Shown piece by piece: positions 2,943 through 62,700 of a stretch of DNA of 64,000 nucleotides. Position numbers and translations under genes: made by a program. Numbering within the stretch: position 1 is the stretch's first letter; every line of letters starts with the position of its first letter. Below the pieces are notes generated by a model. That model made no database searches. It was not told the origin of the DNA and was given only the letters and a program-made list of their open reading frames with translations. Source of the DNA: Octopus vulgaris (lineage: Eukaryota); contig OX597832.1 of assembly GCA_951406725.2 (NCBI GenBank), positions 930,001-994,000 on the forward strand, in the 5' to 3' direction.

Positions 2943-3215
2943 TGTAGTGTGATGGAGGAAAAGGACAACAGAAAAGGAAGCAAACGGGAGAAAGAAATAC
3001 AAAAGGCCTTACCTGTTGACCTCGGCGGAATGAGCGATCACTCTCAAGAAATAAACACGCCTTTGCTCGCTGCCGTCTCTGCTCGAACTAACCACACGCA
3101 TGCCCCGTGACTGTTCCACAGGCCCCTGCAGTCGTTACTTCCATCTACCTCATCTGCAATCCCCTCCACCAACACCACATAGCTCATCACAGTCCATAAC
3201 ACCACTAACACCACA
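2943..3215 (-). repeat. 3' LTR of element 2943-7204
   Basis: Direct repeat of 6928-7204 with TG...CA termini. Confidence 0.92.
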
Positions 3216-3499
3216 CGCCCCCCTGATCTAAAGATCACTCAACCGGCTTTCCCACTCACTCCTCGCTCCCGAACTCACACATTAACTGGTTTCATAATCA
3301 GCCAACCAGGGAAAAGGGTGTCGCTCCCTCTGTGGTCGCCGTGCAACCCCGGGACTGGCCTGAGTTCCTGGCATGCTGCTGCTGGCTTCATCATCTTGTC
3401 TACTGAAGCTGTCTTCATCTTCTTGCCTTCTGTTGCTGTCTTAATCTTCTTGCCCACTGCTGCTGGTTCTATCCTCTGAGGCATGGACAATCTTCCGTA

Positions 3500-6191
3500 C
3501 ATCCAAAACGTGGCGTGGAATACCATTGGCAGAGACGTTGTTCTTCGAATTGATGGCGGTTATTGTTCCCTTTACCCTTCGTGATGTACACCGTGCGTTT
3601 GGGGTTATACCCAAACTTCCCCGACCTGCACGAAGGCGTGCTCTTCCTCTGCCCCGAGTCGCATTGATGCAGTACACGGATGCCTCCACTCGTACCTGAA
3701 TATTTCCCTGTGTGGCACCGACCCCTCGGCCTGTTCTGACCTGGGCGACATATTGTGCCAAATTATGGCCTCAATTGGTGAAATGTGGCCCCTCTCTGCC
3801 ATGGTCTTGATGGTACGGTGATGCCTTTCCACCACCCCATTTCCACTCGGCCGGTATGCCGCCCTGAAGAAGCGGTTGACCTGTCACCCATCAAGCATTT
3901 CTTTCAGCACCTCCGAGCGAAATGCAATGCCATTATCCAGAAGCAGTTCATCCACGGGGCCTCGTTCCAGGAATATCTCATTTAATACTTTCACGATTCC
4001 CTCTGCGGTCCCCGTCTTCATCTTCCTCCATATGGCCAACCTCTCCGGTCCGCAGTCAACCATTGAGAAGTATGTCCCCTGCCGGTAGTGTGTTATGTCC
4101 ACCGCCAGTCGTTTCCAGTCGTGGTCCACTGGAATACTTCCCGCCTCATATACGCCCGGAGCAGGGTCGATGGACTGGCACCTGTTACACCTGCTAACCA
4201 CTCTCTGCACGCTCCGTCTTGTTACATCGGAGTCAACTTTCCTGGCTAGGAACAACATCCTGTCCACCACCATGTGATGCATGGTATGCAATCTCCTCAA
4301 CTCCGAGTCACTCAGACGACATACTGCAGCTACATCCTGCTCCGCATCTTCTGGCACCTGCAACCAGGCTCGCTTTACCCTGGTCAGGACGTCTGCCCTG
4401 TTCTTCTCGGAAGGCACAAAGATCACGCTCAGCTTCAGATTGAACTCTGTGTTTAGTTCACGCAGTATCCCCAATCGACGTTTTACCAGCATCTCTGCTC
4501 ATTGGTGATGACTGCTGTCACCCAACCAAGTAAAGTGGCCGAATCAGTCCTGATTTCTATGGTGTGCAGCCCCCATTTCAAGGCTAGGTTCACTCCCTTC
4601 AATACGGCATCTAACTCCGCCACATTGATGATTGCAGTCATCCATTTTCCTGAGCCAGGCTGCATCTTCCACCACGACGCCTCCCACTTCCAAAACAACC
4701 CCTATTGCGATGCTACTGGCATCACACCATACAATCTCGCTCTGTCATTTGGGAACATACCAACTGCCCCGCACTGGATCATCTGCTCTCACTCTGACCA
4801 AGACTTCCTGTATCATGTCGGTCGTCTTCTCCCCCACTCTATCGTTCCACTTCACGCCTTCGGCTCGTTTCTTGATGAAGCTACATGCTGTCTGGAGCCA
4901 TCCTGCAATCGGGTAGTGTCCCACCAGCTTCCCACACACCGAGAACAGTTCCCGTCTACTCATGCTGGTGCTCAGTTCGGGGATCTCGTTCCCGCGCCGG
5001 AACACCAATGCGCCAGCCTTGTCTCTCCATAGCTTGAGGCGCAGTGCAGCGCCTCCCACCATTGCCTCTGGTGACTTGGCGACCAGTGCAAAACTTTTCA
5101 GGTGGCCTATGACCTCCGTTGCTGACATTACGGTTTCATCTACCAGAATGTCATCAATGTACGAATTGGAGGCTTTTTTTTTCTGTCCACCTTTCCCAGC
5201 ATGGCCTTGAGAATTGTTGCCATAATCTTTGGCTCTGAATTTAGCCCGAACCCCAACCTGGTCAGACAGTATGTCCGGCCCTTATACCTGACAAACTGAT
5301 ACTTCCACAGTTTCTCAGCCACATGCACTTGCAGGTATGCCGACTTCAAATCGACGATCGTGGAGGCCCCTGTCATCTAACTCCACTCTCGCAAGGTGTC
5401 TCTGCAGACATCTGTGGCCTCGCCGCCTGTATGACATGATACGTGGTCATTCAGCTCTGGGAAGTCAAGCTCTGGCCTGACCTTATGCTTTGTGGGCTGT
5501 ACCACCGCCATCAGTGGCAGGACTCCGCTCTCTACTTTTTCTTCCCAAGGAATCAATATGCCCTCCTTAATCCACAGCTCCACCCACCCCCTCGAACTCA
5601 CTTCTGGCATCTACTTTTAGAGTATGCTGATAGCAGCCCACTTTATTTTTTAACGTCGGGGGCTCTCCCTTCCAGTGCCACTTCACTGTCCACCTCTGGC
5701 CATCGAAGACAGCCTGAAAGCCCTGGTTTTCAAATTGCGTGTGCAGCATAGTTTTCTTCGCAGTTCTCACCAATGCACGGTCTCGCCATACACGGTTTCC
5801 CCGCAAACCCAAACGTTACACCGGCCTCGTTAACAGTGACACCTCCCAAACGGGTGATTGCATCCATCCCCATCACCACGTCAATCTCGTCCACCAAGTG
5901 GCCAACTACAATTGCTCGCAGCGTCAGCCTTATTCCCTGCACCACAATATGCGCATCTGTAATGCCTTCACAGTGTACCTCTCTTCTGTCGACTGCTCTT
6001 ACACTGCTTTCTCCACTCCACGTCTCTACCACTTCTGAAGTCATCAGGGTCGTCGTACAGCCCGTGTCCACAAGGGCTCGCGACATCTTCCCCTCCACCA
6101 GAATGTCGACTACAGGTAATAATGATAAACGCGCCACTATTGATCCAAAGGAACAAGTACCGGCGCAGTAGTCTCCCTTAGACCGTTTCCC
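3500..6191 (-). pseudogene. pol: pol pseudogene (aspartic protease, RT, RNase H, integrase)
   Basis: ORF pieces 5730-6239 (LVDTGC), 5377-5610, 5140-5376 (DLKSAYLQV, RLGFGL), 4745-5128, 4483-4698 (INVAELDAVLKG, TDS), 3884-4492 (H-H-C-C, WKRLAVDITH, DNG) and 3605-3835 (VERHHRTIK), broken by stops and frameshifts. Confidence 0.9.
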
Positions 6192-6860
6192 CGCAGACAT
6201 TCGCTGGCTATATGTCCCGTTCCTCGACACCGGTAGCAAATGACCTCAGGCTTGGGTAACACCCAGTCTCGTACCATGTGCGGACCCTGACACCGGAAAC
6301 ACTGTCCTTTGAATGGTCGCACACGTTCTTTCTTTGACCCCTCTTCGCTGCTCTTTGCTCGGCCACTTTTCGTTGTTGCAGTCGCTGCTACCGACGTCAT
6401 CCTGCAGCACGAAACTAGCACGCGAGCCCGAGATACAATGTCTGCCATCACCATCGAGTTAATGTTCGGCAGCTTCTGCAACTCGACCGACATGTGGTCA
6501 GGAAAGTCAGTCACAAACGCTAACTTAACCGTCCGGTACAACGATTCTCCCTCATATCCCGTCAGTTCAACCAATCTTCTGAGTTCGTTTGCAAATACGT
6601 TAACCTGTTCCCCAGTCCATTTTGCTTTCCCCAGGCGAGCGTACGCTTCGAATATTTCCTCTGCAAAGGCCTCCATCAAACGGATTTCTATTTTCTCCAC
6701 GCTAAGTTGCGCCCTTTCTTTCATTTCTAGGTACAGCGCCAACGCCAAACCATCTAAGTCGTTTATACCGTGGAGCTTCGCCACCAACTTCATCTTCTAC
6801 AACCAAGCAACTACATCCGTGCCACCGCAAAATGGTTTGACCATATCGTTCGAAATACGG
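6137..6860 (-). pseudogene. gag: gag with C-terminal zinc knuckles
   Basis: ORF 6137-6793 contains CFRCQGPHMVRDW and CYRCRGTGHIASEC and is homologous to ORF 34529-35290. The N-terminus is disrupted by a stop. Confidence 0.88.
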
Positions 6861-6915
6861 ACGACACTCATCATTGGGGGTTTTTTGTGGGGGGGGGGGC
6901 TTTTTCTTGTTATGG

Positions 6916-6927
6916 ACCAAAATAGCT
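6916..6927 (-). promoter_or_regulatory. Primer-binding site, complementary (2 G:U pairs) to tRNA-Phe(GAA) nt 1-12
   Basis: Minus strand AGCTATTTTGGT directly after the 5' LTR. Metazoan tRNA-Phe begins GCCGAAAUAGCU. Confidence 0.7.
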
Positions 6928-7204
6928 CGTAGTGTGGTGGAGGAAAGGGACAACAGAAAAGGAAGCAAACGGGAGAAAGAAATACAAAAGTCCTTACCTG
7001 TTGACCTCGGCGGAATGAGCGATCACTCTCAAGAAATAAACACGTTTTGCTCGTTGCCGTCTCTGCTTAAACTGACCACACGTGCTTCCTGCCCCGTGAC
7101 TGTGCCACAGGCCCCTGTAGTCTTTACTTCCGTCTACCTCATCTGCAATCCCCTCCACCAACGCCACATAGCTCATCATAGCCCATAACACCACTAACAC
7201 CACA
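6928..7204 (-). repeat. 5' LTR of element 2943-7204
   Basis: Direct repeat of 2943-3215. The inner terminal CA is mutated to CG. Confidence 0.92.
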
Positions 7205-7345
7205 CTTTATATAAATCGTCGCAGCTGCCCAATCTGAATGATCGACTTTTTCAATAATAGCTACATTTTCTTGTCTTTCTAGCTCTTTACAGACCTGATC
7301 CAACGCCGCAAACGGCACGTTCCGTTTGGACTTAAAAAACAGATG
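7205..7345 (-). mobile_element. Continuation of the host Gypsy RT interrupted by element 2943-7204
   Basis: Translates KRNVPFAALDQVCKELERQENVAIIEKVDHSDWAAATIYIK, which joins across the TSD to ...IRVGADFS at 2942. Confidence 0.85.
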
Positions 7346-23396: not shown

Positions 23397-23436
<40 letters not shown>

Positions 23437-23439
23437 ATA

Positions 23440-25040
23440 TATTTATTTAACTATCTCTAAAGAACTGCTAGATAAAGCCTTCATCTTCGCTAGCGACTTC
23501 ATAGAAATTAGTACCAATGATAAGGACATAATCTTCCATGCTAGAAAGACCTTACTTTTCAGTGAGAACGCAAAGTGGGTAAAAAACACCGACACAGAGG
23601 GCGCTTTCGATGTGAGCATGGGTTCATATGATGGGGCAGGCATCTGCGATCTAATTGGACTTTTTCTCCTAGATACCTTAGGTAAAACATTCCCTAACGT
23701 ACATTTCGCCATCTACAAAGATGATGCAAATGGACCAGCACAAGATCGTTTTAGGAAGGATATTATCCAGTTAATGAAATACTTCGGACTTAGTATAACT
23801 ATAGATACTAACCTGACGGTTGTCAATTTATTAGACGTTTCCTTAGATCTTAATAAGAATATTTATAAGCCTTATAGGAAGCCCAATGATAGACTAAGTT
23901 ATATTAATGTAGGTTCATGCCATCCCCCTATAGTATTCAAAAATTTAGTTAAAAATATTAGTAAGAGGATTTCTAGCCTCTCCTCTGATAAGGACATCTT
24001 CAATAGCGTTGCCCCAGTTTATAATAAGATAGTGGTTTTAGCGAAAAAATAAAATATACACCCATTACTAGCCCAACAGTAAGGAAAAGGAATAATAGAA
24101 ATAGGAAGGTCATCTGGTTTACGCCCCCTTACTCACCCGAGGTGGCCTTCAATATAGGTAAATATTTCCTAGCACTGATAGATAGACATTTTCCAGTTAA
24201 CCATACTTATAGGAAACTCTTCAATAGACACAATTTTAAAATTAGTTTCAGTTCCACTACCAATTTTAAAAACATAATCAAACATAACATACAAAAAACA
24301 CAACAAGAAAACAGCTGTTCATGCAGGAATAAAGAATTGTGCCCGCTAAATGGAGCTTGCATGTCCAAGACCATCATATATGAAGCTACCGTAAACCCTA
24401 TAACCACTAAAGACACCGTTTCGACGAAGAAATACGTGGGCCTTACAGAGGGTAACTTCAAGGCCAGGTTCAATAACCACACTTTGAGCTTTAGGCACTG
24501 GAACAAAAGAAAAGCGACACAATTATCTAATCATATTTGGTCTTTAAGAGATAAAGGTGTCGATTATAACATACATTGGAAGATTTTGGCCAGATGTAAG
24601 CCCTATACCAACGGCAGCGGAAGGTGCGGTCTATGCGACATGGAGAGATGGCTCATCTGGAAAAGCAGCTTAGACCCTACTACATGTCTAAACACAAGGA
24701 CAGAGCTTTTTGGATCATGCCCACATGTGACTAAATTTCTGTTACGTTTTTGGTCCCCTAAAGAAAACAGATAGAACATGCTTTCTATGTTATGTCCCAA
24801 GAAGATTTTATATATTTTTATATATTTTTTTATATATTTTTTATGCATTTTTATATAATTTTTATGACGAAAAATGCGAGCGATGTATAAGTACGCAGGC
24901 AAGCAGAGTTATAACAGAGTAATTTCCCTATGTTTAACGGTATTTTTTCATAGCGTTTTCAAATAGCCAGATAACCGAAGAGATGGTGTTGTGGATTTCC
25001 ACTTCGGCATCTGAAACTCAGAGTTTTATCTTGACTATCG
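23440..25040 (+). mobile_element. 5'-truncated Hydra-type Penelope-like element inserted in (TA)n
   Basis: RT: FDVSMGSYDGAGICDLIGLFLL, YKDD, YKPYRKPN, SCHPP. GIY-YIG ORF 24142-24774: IIYEA..YVGLTEGNFKARFNNH, CGLCDME, LNTRTE..CPH. 3' pseudo-LTR carries a hammerhead motif at 24969-25031. Confidence 0.92.
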
Positions 25041-25059
25041 AGTAATGTAACATATTGTG

Positions 25060-25113
<54 letters not shown>

Positions 25114-25384
25114 CATGGCCACAGCTTGTGAGCTGAAGCTAGATAAATAAAAAAAAAATACATACATATACATATATCATAAATATTTATATATATATAT
25201 ACACCTTTTAACTTGTTTCAGTTATCAGATTGTGGCCATGCTAGGCTTTTAGTCAAACAAATCGATCCCAGGACTTATTTTTATTTAGTACCTGGTACTT
25301 ATTCTATCGGTTCTTTTTGCTGAACCGCTGGTTGACAGCGACGTATACAAATCAGCACTGGTTGTCAAGCGGTGTTGGGGTAGT

Positions 25385-26922
25385 GTGGGTTTATTGCAGC
25401 TCCACACAACCAACAGCAACCACTCTGTCTACTCTGTGAAAAGACTTTTACAAATGAAACGATGAAACCATCGAGTCTTCAAGAACACTTGAATAAAATG
25501 CATCCTGATAGAGCAGAAAAAAAATTTGAATTATTTTCAATCTCTTAAAAATAATTTTCACGTGAGAAAAACAATAAGAAGTTTTTTCCCCAGTTCATCC
25601 AGTCAATCTAATGATGGTTTACGCGCTTCTTATAACATATCACTTCTTATTGCGAAGTCCGGCAAACCTCACACTAAGGGAACAGCTGTAAAAGAAGTCC
25701 TGAAGACGGTGCTACACAAGGCATCAGAGCCAATTATCAAAGGTATTCCTCTGAGTAATAGCTCTGTCCAGAGAAGAGTTGATGAAATGGCAGAAGTCGT
25801 CGAAGACCAACTCTGCACAATTCTGAAGAAAGCAGAATTCAGCTTGCCGTTCGACGAGTTTACTTTCCCAGGTTATGATTCCCTCCTCGCATATGTTCGT
25901 TTTGTGAAAGAGGAAAGTTTATGCCAAGAACTGCTCTTTTCCAGACTATTGGAAACTAATAGCGAGGGTGAATCCATTTTCAATGTTGTCAAGAGCTTTA
26001 TTGACAAAAAGGACATCCCACTGAATAATATTGTAGCTTGTGCAACTGATGGTGCACCATCGATGACTGATTGTCATCGCGGCTTCATCAGTTATCTCAA
26101 AGTCAGTTCACCTGATATCTTCACGATGCTCTGCGTGATCTACCGACATCTTGTTGCACGAAACCTCAGAAGTCGTCTTCACGATTTCCTAAACACGGTC
26201 ATCACTGCCGGAAATAAAATCTCATGCTCAAAACTCTCGCCTATTTCAACAGCTTTGCTTCGAAAACGACGAAGACTTTCAAAACTTGCTGCTCCAAACA
26301 GAAGTGAGGTGGTTATCACAGGGAATTGTGTGACACACTTTCATGCGTTGTTTGATTCAGTTCTTTGATACCACCGTCCCAGAACTGTGTGAGGCTTAAA
26401 AGTATAAAAAAGATATTGCATACTTGTCTTGACTTATTCACTAAATTCAACGAAGTGAATAAGCAGCTGCAAGGAGATGGTGTTAATCTCACCCAAGTTA
26501 AGACAACCATCTCAACATTTCAAGCCAAACTTGTTATGTATAAGCGCAATATTGGACGCAGGGAGTCTTTCTAGTTCCCTTGCTTGTCTAGTTTTGAAAA
26601 GGACAGAAAACTTGCAGACGAGGATATGCTTGTCTTTTGCTCCCACCTTACTGAACTGCAGGAAGATATGGAGCGTCGATTTCATGATCTGTTTGCTCTT
26701 CGAGTTCCTGACTGGATTGTCAACCCCTTCATTGACATCGTTGAAGAAGAGAGTGGAGAGTTAGAAGAAGAGCTGATAACCCATCAAAATGATAATGAAT
26801 TGGAGCCTAAATTCCGCAAGTGTGATCAAGAATCTTAGCTTCAAAAAGCTATGCGTGACCGCTATCCGGAGCTTTGGAAGAAAGTCAAATTATTTTTCAT
26901 TGCCTTTCCAACATCTCATTTT
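25385..26922 (+). mobile_element. hAT transposase pseudogene (Charlie/TcBuster, ZBED5/SCAND3-like)
   Basis: BED-like PLCLLCEK...MKPSSLQEHLNKMHP, then YNISLLIAKSGKPHT, IPLSNSSVQRRVDEMA, ACATDGAPSM, LQGDGVNL, WIVNPF, IAFPTS. Frameshifted; TIRs not identified. Confidence 0.9.
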
Positions 26923-27011: not shown

Positions 27012-27014
<3 letters not shown>

Positions 27015-27396
27015 GTGGTAAGTAGCTTGCTAACCAACCACATGGTTCCGGATTCAGTCTCACTGCGTGGCATCTTGGGCAAGTGTCTTCTGCTATAGCC
27101 CCAGGCCAACCAATGCCTTGTGAGTGGATTTGGTAGACGGAAACTGAAAGAAGCCTGTCGTATATATGTATATATATGTATGTGTATGTGTGTGTGTCTG
27201 TGTTTGATCCCCTAGCATTGCTTGACAACCGATGCTGGTGTTTACGTCCCCGTCACTTAGCGGTTCGGCAAAAGAGACCGATAGAATAAGTACTGGGCTT
27301 ATAAAGAATAAGTCCCGGGGTCGATTTGCTCGACTAAAGGTGGTGCTCCAGCATGGCCGCAGTCAAATGACTGAAACAAGTAAAAGAGTAAAAGAG

Positions 27397-28243: not shown

Positions 28244-28618
28244 ACTCTTTTACTCTTTACTCTTTTACTTGTTTCAGTCATTTGACTGCGGCCATGCTGG
28301 AGCACCACCTTTTAGTACTTATTCTATCGGTCTCTTTTTGCCGAACCGCTAAGTGACGGGGACCTAAACACACCAGCATCGGTTGTCAAGCAATGCTAGG
28401 GGGACAAACACAGACACACAAACACACACACATATACATATATATACATATATACGACAGGCTTCTTTCAGTTTCCGTCTACCAAATCCACTCACAAGGC
28501 ATTGGTCGGCCCGGGGCTATAGCAGAAGACACTTGCCCAAGATGCCACGCAGTGGGACTGAACCCGCAACCGTGTGGTTGGTTAGCAAGCTACTTACCAC
28601 ACAGCCACTCCTGCGCCT
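28244..28618 (-). mobile_element. tRNA-derived SINE (same family), inverted relative to 27012-27399
   Basis: Near-identical reverse complement with a small internal deletion. Confidence 0.88.
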
Positions 28619-32886: not shown

Positions 32887-34493
32887 CACACACACACACA
32901 TACTCAAGTTTCAAATCATTCAGTTCAGACATAAATAGAAGAGAAATTAATATCTTCACCTCTGACAATAAGTACATGAGATTCTTCTCACGACACTTGA
33001 ATGACACCATGCGATAATGACATTCAATTGCTTGTTCAGCAATGGCTGGTTCTTACTGTTACATTCTTTTAAACTGCTTTTGAGAAAATCATTTCAAACA
33101 CTTCATCTTCTCGCCATTTATAAATATATCACTACTTCACTCTCAAACTATTATGCATATTTCTTTAAAATAAAACATCATTAGTCAATGAAAATAAGAG
33201 AAAAAGGTATTAAGTATATTTCTTTGCAAAGGTGTGTTTCATTTACTTTTTGAGAATATATTTGTTATCTAACGGGAATACAGACTAATAACTGATTATA
33301 CAATGTAAATTGAGATCGTGAGAAGTTTCTATGTAATGATGTCTTGGTGAATTAAGAATTTAACTGTTTAATCAAGTTGGCATTTTTTGTAGATTACTTT
33401 TATTTAAAAACCGGTTTCTTTCAGATAGAGGCATGTATTACCACTGACATTCTATCAGTAAAATATTTTGACTAATGCTAAAAACTAGTCATATACATGT
33501 AAATTCTAGGGAGAATTAATAATGATTTAAATGATATTTATTTCTAACATAGGAAAAACAAAATTATTGATTTCTACAGATGTGAACAAATGTGTACAGA
33601 CAAATTCTTGCATACTGCTGGTAAGCTGTATGTGGTCGGTTGAAATAGCTAGTGTCATTTTATGTCATAAAGTGATAAAAATGAGACTTATGGACTTGAG
33701 GTACATTTTGTAGGGATCTAGCTTGACCCTGCCCGAAATTTGAAACCAAATCCACCCAAAACGAGCGGGAAATCCTCTCCACACTAGATGATTGATGAGT
33801 AAACACTCGACGCCCTAGGACTTGTGCTGGTCAAGGAAAGGTTTGTTTAGGGTTTGACCTACATTACTGACCATAGTCTTCATAACAGAGAACACTTCCT
33901 ATCTCTTCTTCCTGTTTTGTATCAGTGGACCAAGGAGTAACACGCTCTCCTGCGTCAGCCATGACCAAGAACAACACTTCCCTTGCCCTTAGCTCGACGT
34001 ACGAACAGAAGCTTTCGACCGCAAGAAAGACGATGCCACCTTTATCCTTTCTTCCTTTCTAGTCAGCACTGTGCCTTCCTTACTCTTTCACTCTCTACTG
34101 ACATACAACCTTTTTCTACTAACCAGCGAGCCAACCTTGTTGTCATTATCACTAGAATTGCTACTGTATCTTTAACTACCTGTCGGGCAAACGAATAAAT
34201 ATATGTAAATTGTGGGATGACGTCAGCAGCTGGGGAGCTGACCGAAACTTGGGACTGACCGGAAGAGGAAGGGGCAGGTGTGACGCGCGCACAAGCAGTG
34301 CAGCATTGGGCTTTTTCGATCGAGGAAACCGAGCGAGTCGGACGTGTGAGCTCGTTGTTAAGGTAGGGGAAAAGCAGCTGCTATTTCTAGTGTTCTGGTC
34401 GGGCCGCGTGGAAGGGTGCATTACCTCTAGAGAGGTCTCCATCGACGAAGAGAAGGTAGGTGTCCTTATTTCAAATCTCCCGCATACACCACA

Positions 34494-34505
34494 AGCTATT
34501 TCGGC
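34494..34505 (+). promoter_or_regulatory. Primer-binding site: perfect complement of tRNA-Phe(GAA) nt 1-12
   Basis: AGCTATTTCGGC directly abuts the 5' LTR. Its reverse complement is GCCGAAATAGCT. Confidence 0.8.
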
Positions 34506-34528
34506 ACTCCATATAAGACATCACCACG

Positions 34529-35290
34529 ATGGCAGCGAAAAAAAGGATTGCCAGCGACATTATCAGACTCTTTAATGATGAGGGCGATGTAGTGGCCTGG
34601 ATTCGTAAAATCAGGCTGGTGGCGAGACTGCAAGGCATAAGCGATGTGGCGAGCCTTATGGCGCTGTATTTGGAAGAGAGCGCGTTGACGCTATATCTTG
34701 AGATGGACGAGGAAGAACGGCTGAGCGAGAAGATTGAGCAACGCCTGAGAGATGCTTACACCGAATGTGAGTACACAGCCTTTGTTAAGCTGGGTACGAT
34801 TAGATGGACGGAAGAACAGGTAGACGAATACGCGGCGGAAGTGCGAAGGTTAGCCACGCTGGCTGGGTTAACAGGAGAAGACCTGGAGAGAGCAGCGCGA
34901 CTGGCGTTCGTAAGTGGGTTCCCCAACGGCGTAGGGATTCGCCTGCAACAATTGCCAGGGGGCAAAAAGATGGCGTTGAGGGAACTTGTGACTCAAGCAC
35001 GCGTATTGACGCGAAACACTGGGCAGAAGGCGATAGCGATGGCGGTAATGAAGGTGCGTAAAGACGGACGACTGCCGGAGAAAGACGCGAAGAAGCCTAC
35101 CGTGCAACGACAGCGGCCGTTCTCAGATCGGTGCTTTAGATGTCAGGGGTCGCACATGGCGAGGGAGTGTACGCAACTGGGGCCCGTCTGCTATCGATGC
35201 AGGCAGACAGGACACATCGCCCGTGATTGCGACCAGGGAAACGACCGTGGGGAAGTTGCTGCCTCTCTGACTTTCCCCGCAAACGAGTAG
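34529..35290 (+). CDS. gag: Gag protein with two zinc knuckles (253 aa, open)
   Basis: ATG to stop without interruption; CFRCQGSHMAREC and CYRCRQTGHIARDC. Confidence 0.88.
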   Translation: MAAKKRIASDIIRLFNDEGDVVAWIRKIRLVARLQGISDVASLMALYLEESALTLYLEMDEEERLSEKIEQRLRDAYTECEYTAFVKLGTIRWTEEQVDEYAAEVRRLATLAGLTGEDLERAARLAFVSGFPNGVGIRLQQLPGGKKMALRELVTQARVLTRNTGQKAIAMAVMKVRKDGRLPEKDAKKPTVQRQRPFSDRCFRCQGSHMARECTQLGPVCYRCRQTGHIARDCDQGNDRGEVAASLTFPANE

Positions 35291-35296
35291 AGGCGC
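35236..35296 (+). promoter_or_regulatory. -1 ribosomal frameshift signal (G GGA AAC + pseudoknot)
   Basis: Slippery heptamer in the gag frame, with pol in the -1 frame. Stem GTGGGGAAGTT/GACTTTCCCCGC; loop GCCTCT can pair with downstream AGAGGC. Confidence 0.75.
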
Positions 35297-37547
35297 TTTT
35301 GGAGACGCTGCCCTTAATTGGTGTCGAGGCCGAGGGGAAGACGTTACTAGGAGAAGCATCCGGAAAGTGGTCGGGAGCTGCGGCAGGTGTCAGTTCATTG
35401 ACACTGCTCCGTGTGGGAATGAGCAAGGAAACCTTTCGGTGGAAACCTTTCGATGGAAAAGGCTAGCTGTGGATGTGACGCACTACCGTCAGGGAATGTA
35501 TCTCTCCATGGTCGACTGCGGGCCGGGCCGACTGGCAATTTGGAGGGAGTTGAGAACGGGCATTGCTGACGAGATTGCGCAGATTTTGAACGGGATATTT
35601 TTAGAGAGAGGTCCCGTGGAAGAACTGCTAATGGAAAACGGGCGGCGTTTCGTTCGGAAGCATTGAGGGATATGCTCGACCGGTGGAAAGTGCGTATAGG
35701 CCGAGCGGACAGTCAAAGCCATAGCGGAAACAGGGCACATTTCGCCGCTGGAAGTGGTTTTTTTGGTACATGTCTCCCCGATCCGGACAAGCTGAAGAAT
35801 CTGTGCCGCACAGAACTGTATTTAAATATAAATGGAAGCACCCGAGTAAAGCGCCGGAGGACCACGAGGAAGAGAAGGGATCCACTTGCGTGAAAATAGG
35901 GGAGGAAGTCTGGGTTAAGCCACCAAAGGCGCGTTGTACGTCCCAATGGAGCAGAGGAACGGTGACGGCGGTCAATTCCAGAAACAACGTCTTTGTGGAA
36001 GGAATGCCGTGACATGTCTTGGACTTTCGCAGGATTGTCGCTTCGTCGGACGACGATTGTGGAGAGGGGGAGAACGCGGTGCCTAGCCTGAGAAGATCCC
36101 GACGCGCAAGGCGCCCTCCCGGTTGGATGGTGGACTACGACGTGGAGTAGAGAGAATGTGATCTTTAAGATCAGGGTGGCGTGTGGGATGACGTTAGCAG
36201 CTGGGGAGCTGACCGGAACTTGTGGCTAACTGGAAGAAGAAGGGGAAGGCGTGACACGCGCGCAGGCAGAGCAGCATTGGGCTTTTTCGATCGAGGAAAC
36301 CGAGCGAGTCGGACGTGTGAGCTCGTTGTTAAGGTAGGGGAAAAGCAGCTGCTATTTCTAGTGTTCGGGTCGGGCCGCGTAGAAGGGTGCATTACCTCTG
36401 GAGATGTCTCCATCGACGAAGAGAAGGTAGATGTCCTTATTTCAAATCTCCCGCATACACCACATAAATATTTCTTCTTTCTTGGTGCTGAATTTTCGAT
36501 GTTCACTGGTTACTCCGACGTGAGAACTTTTAAACGTTACATCTACACGCTACATTTAGTAGTGGGCTACGTCATATCGACGTGATACGGCATCTCACAT
36601 TCAACACGCTACAATCTTCCCAGATGATGGAAGGTAAAAAACACCATCCCCCAGTCTACATGATTCCATTTCTATCATTGGACATAACTAAACACCACTC
36701 AGCCATTCTGCTGTCCCTCCATAATTAAATCCCAGGCAATAGGTTTCTCATGCCAGTACCATTATTATTTTTTCTCTCACCACTATGCTCTATTCTCCTC
36801 AACACTGACTCTCCAAACACTTTCAGTTGAGATGTAATGAACTAAATACATGTTACATGTTATGATTATCAACTTTATGTTGTTACATGTCATGGTAATT
36901 TATTTTAGGTACATATTCAGTTATGATTATATACTTAAACAAATATATATCAAGTCATAACATTTTAACAATCCATATTATCTCTTATTTCATACCATAT
37001 TTGGTGAACATTTGTACAAGTTTCCAATGGGCTAATCAATGGTTCACTATCCCAGCCAGCATGACCATATCAGGCCGATATCGGGTGAAAAGCGGGATAT
37101 CGGTAATTTTTTGCCGATATCGGCCCGTCATCAATATGACATCAAAACGGGGTTATTTTACGTTTTGCATTTCTCGTTGTCAGTTCCACTTATTACTATC
37201 ACCGTCCATGTAGAAAAAATTGTATTTGTAGTAGTATTGATTCTTTTTGTTTGTTTGTTTGTTTGTTTTAACAGTACTCCAACATCGGGCGGACGTCAGA
37301 TTGCTGTCGTACAGCTGCTGGACAATGCAATATCCTTGTGTTTCAAGTAGGGATAGGGGAAGCAACTCAAAATGCAATCTTAACATTTTCCACATCGAAA
37401 GCAGGGAAATTCAATATCCCTGTCGAAAGTTAGGATTACAAAACACGTGATTTATTTAGTGTCATAAATAAGACTAAAAACGCTTTCAAATTTTGCCAGT
37501 TCAATATAATGTATGGGAAAATTTAAAGTCTTTCGACTTAAGAAATG

Positions 37548-52940: not shown

Positions 52941-55900
52941 GAATAAGAACCACACTCTCAAGTGTAGACCAGTAAAGTATTAAAGTAATAAAGTTAATGC
53001 CTGGTCATAGAGTCACCAATAGTTTCGCATCCACGAAAGCTGTAGTTTTGTAGACAACTCATCAGACTCATCATCCGAAGACAAAATTAATTCTTCACCT
53101 CTCGGAGGAGGAAAGTTGTTACTGCTCTACCCTTTAGACTGTGCTTCTTATTCGGATATATGACACATTGACATTCCATCCGCAACCCGGACACAGAGTG
53201 ACTTTCGGAACCCACTACACCTTGCGCTTGTGCATATTCACGATTACCGCAACATCTCGGAGAACATGGAACGTTACAATATTGGTTATTCTTCAAAGAA
53301 TATCCCGACACCTTCCAACACGGTCTTTGCGAAAATGCTGCTAGAGAAAATAATAGACATCATACGGCGTATGAGGAAAGTGTATTTCTACGATCAAAAC
53401 ACGTCACCCTCAGAGGCCAACACATACGGAAACAGATGTAGGAGGTTCCTACTCACAGTCGAAGAGTTCGAAGCCTTCAAAGCAGACCTACTGGACATCA
53501 TACCCAAGCTAAGATTCCATAAGTCTTCTTCCTCTTTTCAACGCAAACTCCGTAAAGACATACAAAAAATAAAAAGTTCCGACGGGTCCTTAACCTTCTC
53601 GGGTAAGACTAAGAATATATACAGGATAGATACAGACACTTACGATAAATTCTTAGACAATTTTATTACACAAAAATGCAGGCGCGCTTCCCTGAACAGA
53701 TATAAAAACATTAACTGTGAAACCAAACAGATAGCAATTAACCTAGGAATAGCGGATAGGGTAGATATTTTAGCCAAGCGAAATGCCTTCATCACAATAA
53801 AAGACCACAAGCCAAACTTTGCCTCTAACCCCAAATGCCACCTGATCAACCCGACAAAATCCGAGATCGGCCAGGCTAGCAAGCATATACTGCGGAAGAT
53901 TAATGACGGCAAAGGGAGAGCCTCCGACCTCTCTCTCTATGGCGCAGCACTAAAGAGGTGGCCTTATGGTTTAATGCCAACCAGGGGAAGGACAGAGCAA
54001 GGTTCAAACAATTTGACACAGTCGATTTTTATCCGTCGATATCAAAAGGGTTGTTGGTGAAGGCACTTTCACTTGCTAAGAGCATCACAGATATTAGCGA
54101 TAGAGATATAGACGTTATCATACATGCCAGGAAGATGATGCTGTTCAATAAAGATTCAACGTGGGTCAAACAATCTGAACCCGAGGGTTCTTTGATGTGG
54201 CAATGGGAGCCTACGACTGCGCCGACATATGTGACCTAATTGGACTATTCATCCTGGAAAACTTAAGGAAGAAATTCCCTTCAGTCCTCTCCAGTCTCTA
54301 CAAGGATGACGCTCTAATCATCTCTAGAGCAGTCAACGATAGGCTTAGAAAGGACCTGATTAGTGCCCTAGGCTCCATGGGACTCATAATCCTAGATGTC
54401 ACTCTAGACTTGGGCTCTGGTACACACAGGCTCTATCAAAGAGAGGCTGTCTTATATTAACACAGCCTCCTACCACCCACTATTGTGTTCAAGAACCTAG
54501 TGAAGGGTGAACCTAGAGCAAGAGGATCTCTAGTGAAGATATCTTCGACAACGATGCCCCCTCCAACAACGAGGCACTGACATCCAGCGGGTTAGCACTG
54601 CTGGAACGTGGTTTCGTTGGCCCCACCTTTCTCACTCAAAGTCAAGACTTGTGTGAGAAGGTTATTCCTCTGATTAATAAACAAACACTTCATGCAGACG
54701 CACAGATTCAAACATTTATTCAAGAGGCACAACTTAAGGGTCTCCTTTAGTTATGCACCTAACAGGGAAAGTTTATTAGCTAACACCCATAAAGCAATGG
54801 GATGAGGCAGGTTGTTCTTGCAGGGTGTACAATGATTGTCCAGTGGGAGGCCAATGCGAGGCCGAGGGAGTCATCTATGAAGCTGTGGTGACACCAAGGC
54901 CTAGCGACCACAGTAATAGCAGCAACGGATCATCCAACAACATCGACAGCATTGGAGGCAACGACAGCGGTAGAAACATCAGTACTGACGCCAACGACCC
55001 CAGTACCAGCGCTACGGACAGAGAAGATGACCATATCGACACCTGTGGCGACAGTGAAGTTACCGGTCCCACACCCAACATTACCATCCGCGGTACCCCA
55101 TTACCACCGGCAGCAACGACTACCACAACGATAGCAACCACAGCGACAGCAACCACAGCCGCATCGCCTGGCCCGCGCGCAAAATTTGTTCCTACGCGAG
55201 TTCCGGACCCCAGTAATGAACTCATTTGCATACAGCCGATCAGAGTTCACCTTGACCATGTTGTCAAGCTAAAAAATACACTCTACCAAGTAAACTCAAG
55301 ACGAAGAACGGTGATGTAAGTCGACCGATCGCCAAGTTATGCCTGATTTTAGAAGGGGGACAAGTAATTAGATATATTTGCACCTATACCTATTATCGGA
55401 TTTTGTTAGGGTCCTATATGGTAAAGATGCGGATGGGAAAAATGTGGGTAGAGGGTGATGTGCTAGCAACCCTCTCTCCTTACTGTTTTAACAAGTAAAT
55501 AACAGCACAAATAAATACGCAGAGGCAGTCATCGTTGAAATACGAACAAGAACAACAAGCATTATTAAAAGAGAAAAGAAGCTAAGGAGCCAAGTGACCT
55601 TTTCTTATGACTCATCACTTGTTATACGCTCATAAATTTATTTGATATCTGAGCTCTGATTGGCTGTATGAGGGTCCGGAACTCTCGTCGGATAAAAAAA
55701 ATTTCGCGGCCCACACGTCATAATGATAACAGCGCCGGTGGCAACATCCTCAGGCCCGGAGCCAACCAGTAATGTGAATGCAGCTAACACCCAAGCCTGG
55801 AAATACATCGGATTAGACAGTACGACATTTAAACGACGCTTATACAATTTCACTTTCAGAAAATCGATTCGTCACCTCCTTGGACAGCCATGTGTGGCAT

Positions 55901-59753: not shown

Positions 59754-62700
59754 GAGCTTTGCGGTTAGATCACCGCTTTTTACAGTAACATTCAGTCGGT
59801 CGTTCGGTGAACGGGTTTCAATCAGAGCCGTTCTGCATTGAGCGCTCGCTCTTCCCAGGGTACCCTCTCTCCTCTCCTCCTGTACGTTATGGCTCTTGAA
59901 CCATTACTGCAGAAAATGGAGGCTCTGAGATGCATCCCGCCTGATCTGGAGTGCAGGAAGACAGTGACAACATACGCAGACATCACCATCATCGTAGCCA
60001 ATGAAAACCATCTACAAGTAGGTGGTACCATAAAGGATTAAGAAGTGGTGACACGAGCAAAAATAAACCAGGGTAAGTTAGTCGGTCTGCAGCTCGGCAC
60101 CTGCAGAGGCAGGCTGATGTGATGACGTCCCAGATGATTTTTTGGCCAGGGATCTTTTGGTAGTTATTCATAAGCCCGGCTCGAAAGTTCCCCGGAACAG
60201 ACCAGCAAATTGACCGTCATCGAAACCCAGGGTCTCCTAACTGGACGTCATCACACTTGCCCGCTACTAACCCTCTATAGAAGGACGAGGTGATGGTGAT
60301 GTCTGCGTATGTTGTCACTGTCTTCCTGCACTCCAGATCAGGCGGGATGCGTCTCAGAGCCTCCATTTTCTGCAGTAATGGTTCAAGAGCCATAACGTAC
60401 AGGAGGAGAGGAGAGAGGGTACCCTGGGCAGAGCGAGCGCTCAATGCAGAAAGGCTCTGATTGAAACCCGTTCACCGAACGACCGACTGAATGTTACTGT
60501 AAAAAGCGGTGATCTAACCGCAAAGCTCCGGATCAAACCCGGCCGCCTCGAGAACTACCGCCAGATACCGATGGTCAACTCTATTGAAAGCCTTAGACTG
60601 ATCTAAATGGATCAGAGCCCTTCCTGTGCAGGAATTCTAGCCACCCTCTCTATGGTGTAGCGTATGAGGTGGTGATTGTTGTGTATTGTTCTGCTTGGGA
60701 TGACGCAGGTTTGCGCCTCCTCAACCTGTTCACTCATGACCCGCGCCAACCTCTTCGCTGGCACCTTAGCCAAAATCTTCAGCTCTGCATTGAGCAGAGT
60801 GATGGGTCTGAAATTATCATATAGTCCCCCCCCCCCCTTATTTGGATCCTTTCAAAGCCGCACCACGAACCCCACGCCGGCTTACAGAACTGGGAATGCT
60901 CCCATTCTGTAGCCAGTTGGCGTAAATGCTTGCCAGTAGGTGTCGAAACAAGTCTGGCATGTTGTAATAAAATTCGTAGGGCAGACCATCTAGCCCCGAC
61001 GACCTGTCCCCGACGCGGCCCGATAGGGCTTCTACCTCCGCAGCTGTGACCGGCCCTTCACAGCACTACGCTTCCTGCCTCGAGAGTCACGGCAAAACGG
61101 CGAGGAAGCCTGTGAAGTCCATCCTGCGCCCTGGCTTACCACTCATCCCAAACTGCTGGGCGAAATGCGGGTTCGTTTATTGTTTGCCTCTGTTGATTGT
61201 CCAAAGATCTAATGGTAGCATCGTTTCCACGTTGAGCCTCTACCACACGGGCTCATCGAGAGGTGTTGCTTCCCTCTTGTTCCATTGCACGTATTTTAAA
61301 CCTGACAATGCATCCTTCATGTTTGGCATTGAGGTGTTGGTCTAGAACCAACCTCGCTGACAGCACATTGGATGCACTGCCTGCCTTCATCGCTTCTTCT
61401 AGAGACCTAACTAATTCCCTTTCTACTCTATTTTTCTTAAGAACTAATTCTTTGCTAAATCTATTTGACTCAAATTTTATGGGTTTTTTGAGGGAGTACC
61501 AGTTGTTATTTAAGATGGTGCCTGTTAACGCCCTCTTAACTAACTCCCTAATCCGGTTACTGTAAACGTTACAGGTTAGGAGCGATTTGTTTAATCTCCA
61601 GTAACTGGGGCCCTGTCTAGGAAAGCTATCTAAGTCGAGCCTACAAGTCACGAATTTGTGATTGGTGCAGGTGACAATACTAAAGACTATTTTCATCAAC
61701 AACTCTAATAAATACCCTATATAGTTAAGACCTGGAAGATCCGTCGCTATTAGCCCATGTCCACGCTGGAGCGTTCAATTAATCCAGTCTATATCTGTCA
61801 GCCAGCTAGAAGCGGCTGAGCAGATTTGTGAGGAAGGGTTCCCCTTTCTATTGGAATTTGAACCAACATAATCTACACGCGCATCTAAGATAGTGCTAAA
61901 GTCACCTGTTATGACTAAAGTATGTGAACTTCCCAGGAAATTCTCTATGCGTCTGAAATAGTCAGACTGTCCGGTTGCACGTGGTGCATAGACAGCTGCC
62001 AGTCTGAAGGTACTACTGCTGCTATGCGTCACGTCAATGACGATCAGTCTGTCCTCCGGGTCCATAAAGATTGTTCTAATCTCTAAATCCAAATCTTTCC
62101 TGAATAAGACTGACATGGAGAGTTGTATTTGTTGTAGCCATTGAGGAAGGGCGAGAAAGCTCGCTGTCCATTCAGTTTTGTTTCGCCAGTGACTACGACA
62201 TCCAGGTTCCGTGACCTGAGATCATTTAAGAAGCGACCTTGCTTACAGTTCGATCCCAGGCCACGCACATTTATGCTGCCAAGCTTGAGCGAGAACATGA
62301 TAAATTGGACTTACGTACGATTTTAATCGTTGAGGAGAGGTGATGGTAAACCTTCCTCTTCCGTAATATCTTGTGAGGTACTCCCCATGAATTTAGTATG
62401 TAAATAGCCGGCGAAATGTTTTTTTTGTGTGAGGGGGGGGCAATGTCATCCGGGTAGTTATCTTTTTTAGTTCTATATATGATATATTGTCGATATTGTT
62501 GAATGAAATGTTTGGATTTGGTGGAGCTGTATGAGGGGTGATATGTGGGTACGTGTGAGTACCATTAAGTATTGATCACTGTGATGTTGATGACTGTGTT
62601 TGCGGATAATGGGTTGGGTGTTTGGGATTTGAGTGTAGTGGGTGAGGGTCATGCGGGGGATGTGGTTTTTTCTTTTACGTCTTTTTTTATTACTGTCCAT

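Follow-up and report, generated by a model that had tools for sequence, protein, structure and literature searches.

A putative primer-binding site matching the 5' terminus of tRNA-Phe in a compact lineage of LTR retrotransposons from Octopus vulgaris and other invertebrates

We found that the 12 nucleotides directly behind the 5' LTR of a decayed retrotransposon of Octopus vulgaris (positions 6916–6927 of the window, i.e., of the whole 64,000-nt stretch of contig OX597832.1 analyzed here) are probably, on balance, the decayed version of a site common to a whole lineage, at which, by analogy with known elements, a 12-nt 5' piece of tRNA-Phe cut by the RNase H of the element would serve as primer. 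One part of this reading, namely that the primer is a 5' fragment of tRNA-Phe, we consider very likely. The mechanism is deduced from DNA, i.e., from the position of the site, its complementarity to the tRNA, its sharp edges, conservation and decay spectrum, and the lack of other primers. LTR elements are known to be primed by the intact 3' end of a tRNA, by half of a tRNA or by their own 5' end, and a site matching tRNA nt 1–12 fits none of these three kinds. If the reading is true, an RT that cuts and extends tRNA-Phe nt 1–12 would constitute a fourth mode of priming, a trans version of Tf1 self-priming, and possibly a bridge between tRNA priming and self-priming of the Tf1 type. Cleavage of the host tRNA within the D stem by the RT-RNase H, should it be possible, would also be a new way in which short 5' tRNA fragments arise. 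The literature searched, taken from outside subscription journals and Repbase, contained no element primed by the first 12 bases of a tRNA. We conclude that the site is real and lineage-wide and that it is apparently undescribed, a prior annotation being possible. A primer-site search published as an example used, according to the accessible part of its text, the 12 3'-terminal bases of tRNAs (PMC13524379), and searches restricted to tRNA 3' ends miss a site of the present type.

The retrotransposon carrying the 12-mer (element 1) is a decayed 4.26-kb LTR element on the minus strand of the window (2943–7204), framed by a 5-bp duplication, CTTTA (2938–2942 and 7205–7209). Its 5' LTR (6928–7204, 277 bp) runs from TG to CG, the terminal CA being decayed, its 3' LTR (2943–3215, 273 bp) from TG to CA, and the two diverge by 6.2% (K2P). 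The first-pass annotation had placed the 12-mer directly behind the 5' LTR, and this was borne out: the predicted primer-binding site begins at the first base past the LTR and reads, on the minus strand from 6927 to 6916, AGCTATTTTGGT, which is the complement of tRNA-Phe nt 1–12 except for two C>T differences. Both indeed lie opposite tRNA G residues, as had been claimed (G4 and G1), and they weaken the computed site/tRNA duplex from −19.8 kcal/mol for the perfect site to −15.6 kcal/mol. Further along the minus strand follow a short leader (6875–6915), gag with a zinc knuckle (6137–6874, interrupted near its start) and pol (3400–6245, the lower limit being approximate), in which protease, RT, a thumb corresponding to DUF7047, RNase H and a DDE integrase can be recognized among several stops and frameshifts. 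The internal part closes with a TGATC-loop-GATCA dyad (3224–3237) and a G-rich polypurine tract (3216–3223), together spanning 3216–3237 and adjoining the 3' LTR. Since the 5' LTR ends in CG and the 3' LTR in CA, element 1 has decayed right beside the site; a G at that position was seen in only 1 of the 113 copies surveyed below.

The second element (34211–36464, plus strand) possesses a perfect version of the site. Its 5' LTR (34211–34493, 283 bp) is immediately followed by AGCTATTTCGGC (34494–34505), the exact complement of tRNA-Phe nt 1–12 and a predicted primer-binding site, then by gag with two zinc knuckles (34529–35290), the dyad (36159–36173) with the polypurine tract (36159–36181 in total) and the 3' LTR (36182–36464). 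Most of pol is deleted, which leaves an internal part of 1,688 bp vs. about 3,600 in full copies; the duplication is TAAAT and the LTRs diverge by 6.7%. The LTRs of the two elements are as dissimilar as had been noted, with an alignment score of 24 vs. a mean of 23.3 (sd 3.6) for shuffles, and their Gag frames share 42% identity over 230 columns. Three near-identical element-2-type starts, spaced by about 8.1 kb, were also detected at G000:C1:57299264–57315571 (L046–L048) and probably represent a tandem segmental duplication.

A 15-base pattern of the tRNA-Phe start matched the genome 94 times, vs. 0 matches for the control. Six of these loci were inspected; every one is a tRNA-Phe(GAA) gene with nt 1–12 that are the exact reverse complement of the 12-mer of element 2, and tRNA was the sole match in Rfam. 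The Octopus genome has one common tRNA-Phe start. Pairing with the site runs from tRNA U12, beside the terminal CA of the LTR, to G1, i.e., the very end of the tRNA; it stops at U12 because the CA of the LTR is unpaired with C13-A14. As only nt 1–12 are covered, the tRNA's own 3' end would lie off the template, unable to prime as it stands. Complete tRNA-Phe genes occur, among other places, in a tandem array with a 200-bp period (L287, G000:C18:30147732–30157146, around 45 matches), and C6 and C18 carry further clusters, of which two are intermixed with tRNA-Asn genes.

We determined that CA followed by the exact 12-mer occurs 287 times in the genome, vs. 14 matches for the control. Every one of the first 30 of these matches could be assigned to the family, 27 through gag and 3 through shared LTR sequence, and gag was still found at 17 of 22 further matches picked for having no listed gag match nearby. 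In a sample independent of the motif, consisting of 120 loci chosen by gag similarity (60 returned plus 60 picked from two lists of 150), 113 carry the site at the LTR edge upstream of gag with at most four mismatches from CA + 12-mer, 73 of them perfectly; the remainder comprises five loci without a site within four mismatches and two duplicates. Column conservation among the 113 copies amounts to 0.90–0.99 across the 12-mer vs. 0.43–0.90 over the next 12 bases, a comparison in which conservation is somewhat favored, as the site of each locus was its best match upstream of gag. Base +13 is already free (A52, G29, T16, C16). These values support the earlier claim that divergent subfamilies retain a tRNA-Phe 5'-end site at an identical position, and the result that the first-pass annotation had named as its refutation, pair-breaking substitutions in the site at the rate of the adjacent leader, was not found.

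The supposed restriction to G:U-compatible changes, in turn, did not survive the same census. The 51 substitutions in the 40 imperfect copies divide into 32 that disrupt pairing and 19 that are G:U-compatible, and C>T is about as frequent as G>A (17 vs. 14, p = 0.72, 113 copies). Substitutions peak at the CpG, with 10 C>T (wobble-compatible) and 8 G>A (pair-breaking); selection for G:U at this position was therefore rejected. The balance of C>T and G>A, along with the CpG peak, implies decay after insertion and no preference for G:U, as the annotation had itself allowed, and the two odd letters of element 1 look like ordinary post-insertion decay when compared with the other copies. The G:U claim for this copy is thus of little value by itself. 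That the subfamily of element 1 retains a functional site tolerating G:U-compatible changes alone is very improbable: both changes of element 1 are wobble-compatible and the C>T at the last position is common to two close relatives, but most close relatives possess a perfect site, the counts given above run the other way, element 1 itself shows about 6% divergence between its LTRs, interrupted frames and decay at one LTR end, and the three copies sharing the last-position C>T are not resolved as a clade. This change occurs in 5 of the 113 copies, three of which are element 1 and two of its closest relatives. In a DNA tree of 22 rows the three neither grouped nor clearly separated, and brief inheritance of the change is possible. 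A compensating change beside it was found in just 1 of 26 LTR motifs.

Outside the Octopus genome, we detected 659 Pol relatives at E ≤ 1e-20 among the candidates scored, those with names coming from molluscs (including Argonauta and Aplysia), crustaceans (including Petrolisthes and Oratosquilla), a sea spider (Nymphon) and a bryozoan (Watersipora). The gag start was detected in 26 of 51 metagenomic loci, which include several near-duplicates, and in all of these 26 the site lies directly behind an LTR-like end. The 30 metagenomic sites represent five types (12, 8, 5, 4 and 1 members) that vary only opposite tRNA nt 5–7, the bases opposite nt 1–4 and 8–12 being kept. On a Gag tree of 28 rows, with eight loci left out and one very long branch, the types require eight changes vs. 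a minimum of four and include repeated double changes TT/CG; one type needs at least four changes on well-supported branches, and one variant type is derivable from another by a single CpG change. The Octopus genome is nearly uniform, with six variant-type matches. Type switching at nt 5–7 is the pattern that would be expected of a site rewritten from the host tRNA, and it suggests covariation with the host. No tRNA gene was found in any of the 26 metagenomic loci scanned. In viral contigs no relative of the family was found, and the single match to a variant-type pattern was discarded as a phage tRNA-Val. A broader interpretation, which we regard as quite possible yet short of probable, is that of a deep, overlooked and compact LTR lineage present in many invertebrates, whose own RT cuts and extends tRNA-Phe nt 1–12, whose site is rewritten after a host switch, and which may deserve a superfamily of its own.

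Full copies measure about 4.2 kb, and their gag (around 255 aa) overlaps a pol (around 955 aa) of the order PR-RT-RH-IN, encoding protease, RT with YIDD, a thumb corresponding to DUF7047, RNase H and an integrase with rve and H2C2 domains. DUF7047 appears to be the RT thumb of this family with the tRNA-5'-end site. An exact 5-bp duplication precedes TG in 14 of the 18 elements for which both ends were covered. The motif Y[ILV]DD is present in 21 of 21 aligned proteins, and within this alignment RNase H retains its four acidic residues, the model of the domain being predicted to fold as RNase H. PF00078 missed both Pol frames of the Octopus genome that were scanned, NCBIfam added nothing specific, and the ESM Atlas neighbors are unnamed RT clusters, a few of them labelled Euglenozoa. 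The RT is 14–20% identical to solved RTs, the nearest solved chains by sequence being retroviral. In the RT-RH model (pLDDT 93), a single RNase H starts directly after the thumb, and the structural scores are close to each other for caulimovirus (Z 22.8), Ty3 (22.5), MLV (22.4) and foamy virus (21.8), at 14–17% identity, the model in its full length aligning with the RT-RH of Ty3 and caulimovirus. We describe the family as Gypsy-like in architecture, with RT scores that, for a predicted model, are tied among Ty3, caulimovirus, MLV and foamy virus.

The fold of the RT also bears on whether a cut is needed at all. An uncut tRNA might prime from the 2'-OH of U12 and yield branched RNA-DNA as in retrons, which the geometry of the site would allow; we consider this highly improbable, as synthesis of the plus strand would need to read through a 2'-5' linkage and as the modeled RT resembles Ty3, caulimovirus and retroviral RTs (Z 21–23), not retron RTs (Z 7–8). 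To our knowledge, 2'-OH branched priming has no precedent among LTR elements.

With Ty3/Gypsy elements (Metaviridae) the family shares gag followed by PR-RT-RH-IN in overlapping frames, a DDE integrase, TG...CA LTRs, 5-bp duplications (the criterion being 4–6 bp) and one RNase H without a tether domain. Yet, it differs from them by its very compact size (about 4.2 kb), the lack of a tRNA 3'-end site and an RT of only 14–20% identity. In Ty1/Copia, unlike here, the integrase precedes RT. The RT and RNase H motifs, as we judge by eye, presumably resemble those of DIRS (L112:1480–4356), despite the LTRs and the DDE integrase; DIRS-like elements encode a tyrosine recombinase, whereas this family has an rve/H2C2 DDE integrase and 5-bp duplications. 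When the model is aligned with HIV-1/MLV RT, its sole RNase H falls on the connection region, and the integrase follows directly. Retroviruses, Lokiretroviruses and Odin possess a tether and a second RNase H (PMC9040795 for Loki and Odin, in the part accessible), both absent here. Troyka elements and Kuafuorterviruses, as far as the excerpted descriptions go (PMC11673190; PMC12440569), have CG...CG ends, 3-bp duplications and IADD, VADD or LADD replacing YXDD, in contrast to the TG...CA, 5-bp duplication and YIDD of this family, although they too represent a divergent, long overlooked LTR lineage of aquatic animals. Identity with Troyka, Loki or Odin was ruled out, on the basis of their descriptions in the portions of the sources available, by the ends, the duplication, YIDD and the single RNase H. 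Peptide motifs of the family were absent from the supplement files searched of PMC6238403 (MolGy clades) and PMC8556966, and in the searched supplement of PMC11673190 one motif matched a DIRS row only.

We looked for primers of other kinds in the same elements. The predicted site starts with AGCT in all families, whereas canonical tRNA 3'-end sites start with TGG, and a search of the genome for a site of the tRNA-Phe 3' end placed two bases after ACA gave 0 matches. Self-priming was rejected, as none of 37 LTRs holds a self-primer, the longest complement being 4–7 nt (mean 4.8 vs. 5.2 in shuffled sequences). Pairing of tRNA nt 13–73 with U5 or the leader was no better than in shuffles (z −1.0 to 1.2, 10 elements), and no additional tRNA/element contact able to place a nuclease emerged. 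The complementarity to the anticodon arm by which copia and Ty5 sites are recognized is likewise absent, the match consisting of nt 1–12 with no second pairing to nt 13–73. A bipartite site was considered, since the motif before the polypurine tract matches tRNA nt 37–45 in element 1, and it was dismissed, as the loop varies in length and letters. This motif is part of a TGATC-loop(3–5)-GATCA dyad situated 7–8 bases before the 3' LTR, both in the Octopus genome and in metagenomic relatives; its loop is free while its arms are invariant, which fits a dyad better than pairing with the anticodon arm. The leader, compared with the region matching nt 37–45, showed no cognate excess (p = 0.42). In the subfamily of element 1, the last two bases of the site and the first bases of the leader are complementary over 10 nt to LTR nt 15–24 (7181–7190). 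Leader/LTR-start pairing as a lineage-wide feature was discarded, being strong in this subfamily only (p = 0.16 and 0.10).

These searches weigh on the idea that the tRNA-Phe 5' end is an anchor only, helping packaging, dimer formation or folding, or that nt 1–10 act as primer next to a 2-nt spacer, the true 3'-OH of the anchor version lying elsewhere. We rate this improbable, though it has some footing: the two bases before the TG of the 3' LTR vary, as would be the case for an overhang trimmed by integrase, which makes a 10-nt primer with a 2-nt spacer compatible with the data, the conserved GATC dyad before the purine tract is unexplained, and Ty3, in the accessible text of PMC5371799, uses parts of its tRNA other than the priming end. 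Against it, the site occupies the sole position at which a primer of the minus strand can end, the searches brought up no further candidate for a primer, and the first two bases of the site are invariant across families, unlike a spacer.

Returning to a 12-nt tRNA-Phe fragment cut by the element, the course of priming may be pictured as follows. The Gag zinc knuckles would melt the acceptor stem and the D stem, so that tRNA nt 1–12 would be annealed to the site, whereby nt 13–76 would be left as an unpaired 3' tail that could not be extended. By analogy with Tf1, this tail would be cut off after U12, providing a 3'-OH for minus-strand synthesis. Plus-strand strong-stop synthesis would then copy the primer up to the tRNA 5' end, so that the site would be rewritten in each cycle. 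Rewriting from the host tRNA would explain both the sharp right edge of the site and the repeated switches at nt 5–7.

In Tf1, according to the portions of the reports at hand, the 11 bases at the start of the RNA pair with the site, and cleavage by RNase H falls between bases 11 and 12 (PMC7175516; PMC4600332). The likeness to Tf1/sushi elements, as they are depicted in those portions, lies in a short RNA 5' end (11 vs. 12 nt) that pairs beside the 5' LTR and must be cut, while the partner predicted here is the 5' end of a host tRNA, not of the element's own RNA, in line with the 37 of 37 LTRs without a complement. Copia of Drosophila and Ty5 of yeast are primed by initiator tRNA-Met cut in the anticodon loop, as stated in the available text of PMC5371799. 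To judge from that text, the family would resemble them in using a 5' fragment of a tRNA and not its CCA end, and would differ in that the fragment is tRNA-Phe nt 1–12, ending in the D stem, and that the gene order is PR-RT-RH-IN.

The cut need not be made by the element. It could package 5' tRNA-Phe fragments cut in the D-loop by host nucleases, with the 3' bases trimmed to U12, an option that we hold to be unlikely, even though all sequence evidence for the site fits it equally and tRNA-Phe genes are numerous (94 matches). 5' tRNA fragments usually end a few bases past U12, in the D-loop, whereas in every family the paired stretch reaches no further than U12 and C13-A14 never pair with the CA of the LTR; a second trimming step would therefore be needed. 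Host processing of a primer has a parallel in Ty5, whose start from a tRNA 3' end is ascribed to cleavage by host RNase P in the part of PMC5371799 consulted.

Footprints of copying were encountered in the form of two mini-insertions, in each of which an LTR and the 12-mer are followed by 13 nt of the LTR start in inverted orientation; both have 5-bp duplications on their flanks and no gag or pol nearby. One is located at G000:C2:164527796 (L291, identical with L272; duplication TATTT) and the other at G000:C4:143914054 (L292, identical with L284; duplication GCACC). They are likely to represent plus-strand strong-stop DNA that snapped back on the LTR start and was then taken by integrase, as judged from their structure. 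If so, the plus strand would have had a free 3' end at the right edge of the site or no more than about 8 nt from it, and a free 3' end there is expected if copying runs off the tRNA 5' end. As there are only two such cases, both from subfamilies with a leader that already looks like the LTR start in inverted form, they locate the switch point approximately and not to the exact base. A third match of this search (L293) lacks an LTR and seems to be fortuitous, and the same search for the family of element 2 gave 0 insertions.

Apart from the two elements, the window contains an inverted repeat at 59754–60528, with 238-nt arms that are 99% complementary and 299 nt apart, and another formed by 27012–27206 with 28409–28603 (94%). 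Long frames of 180–300 codons at 23399–26368 and 53164–55319 may be further remains of retroelements.
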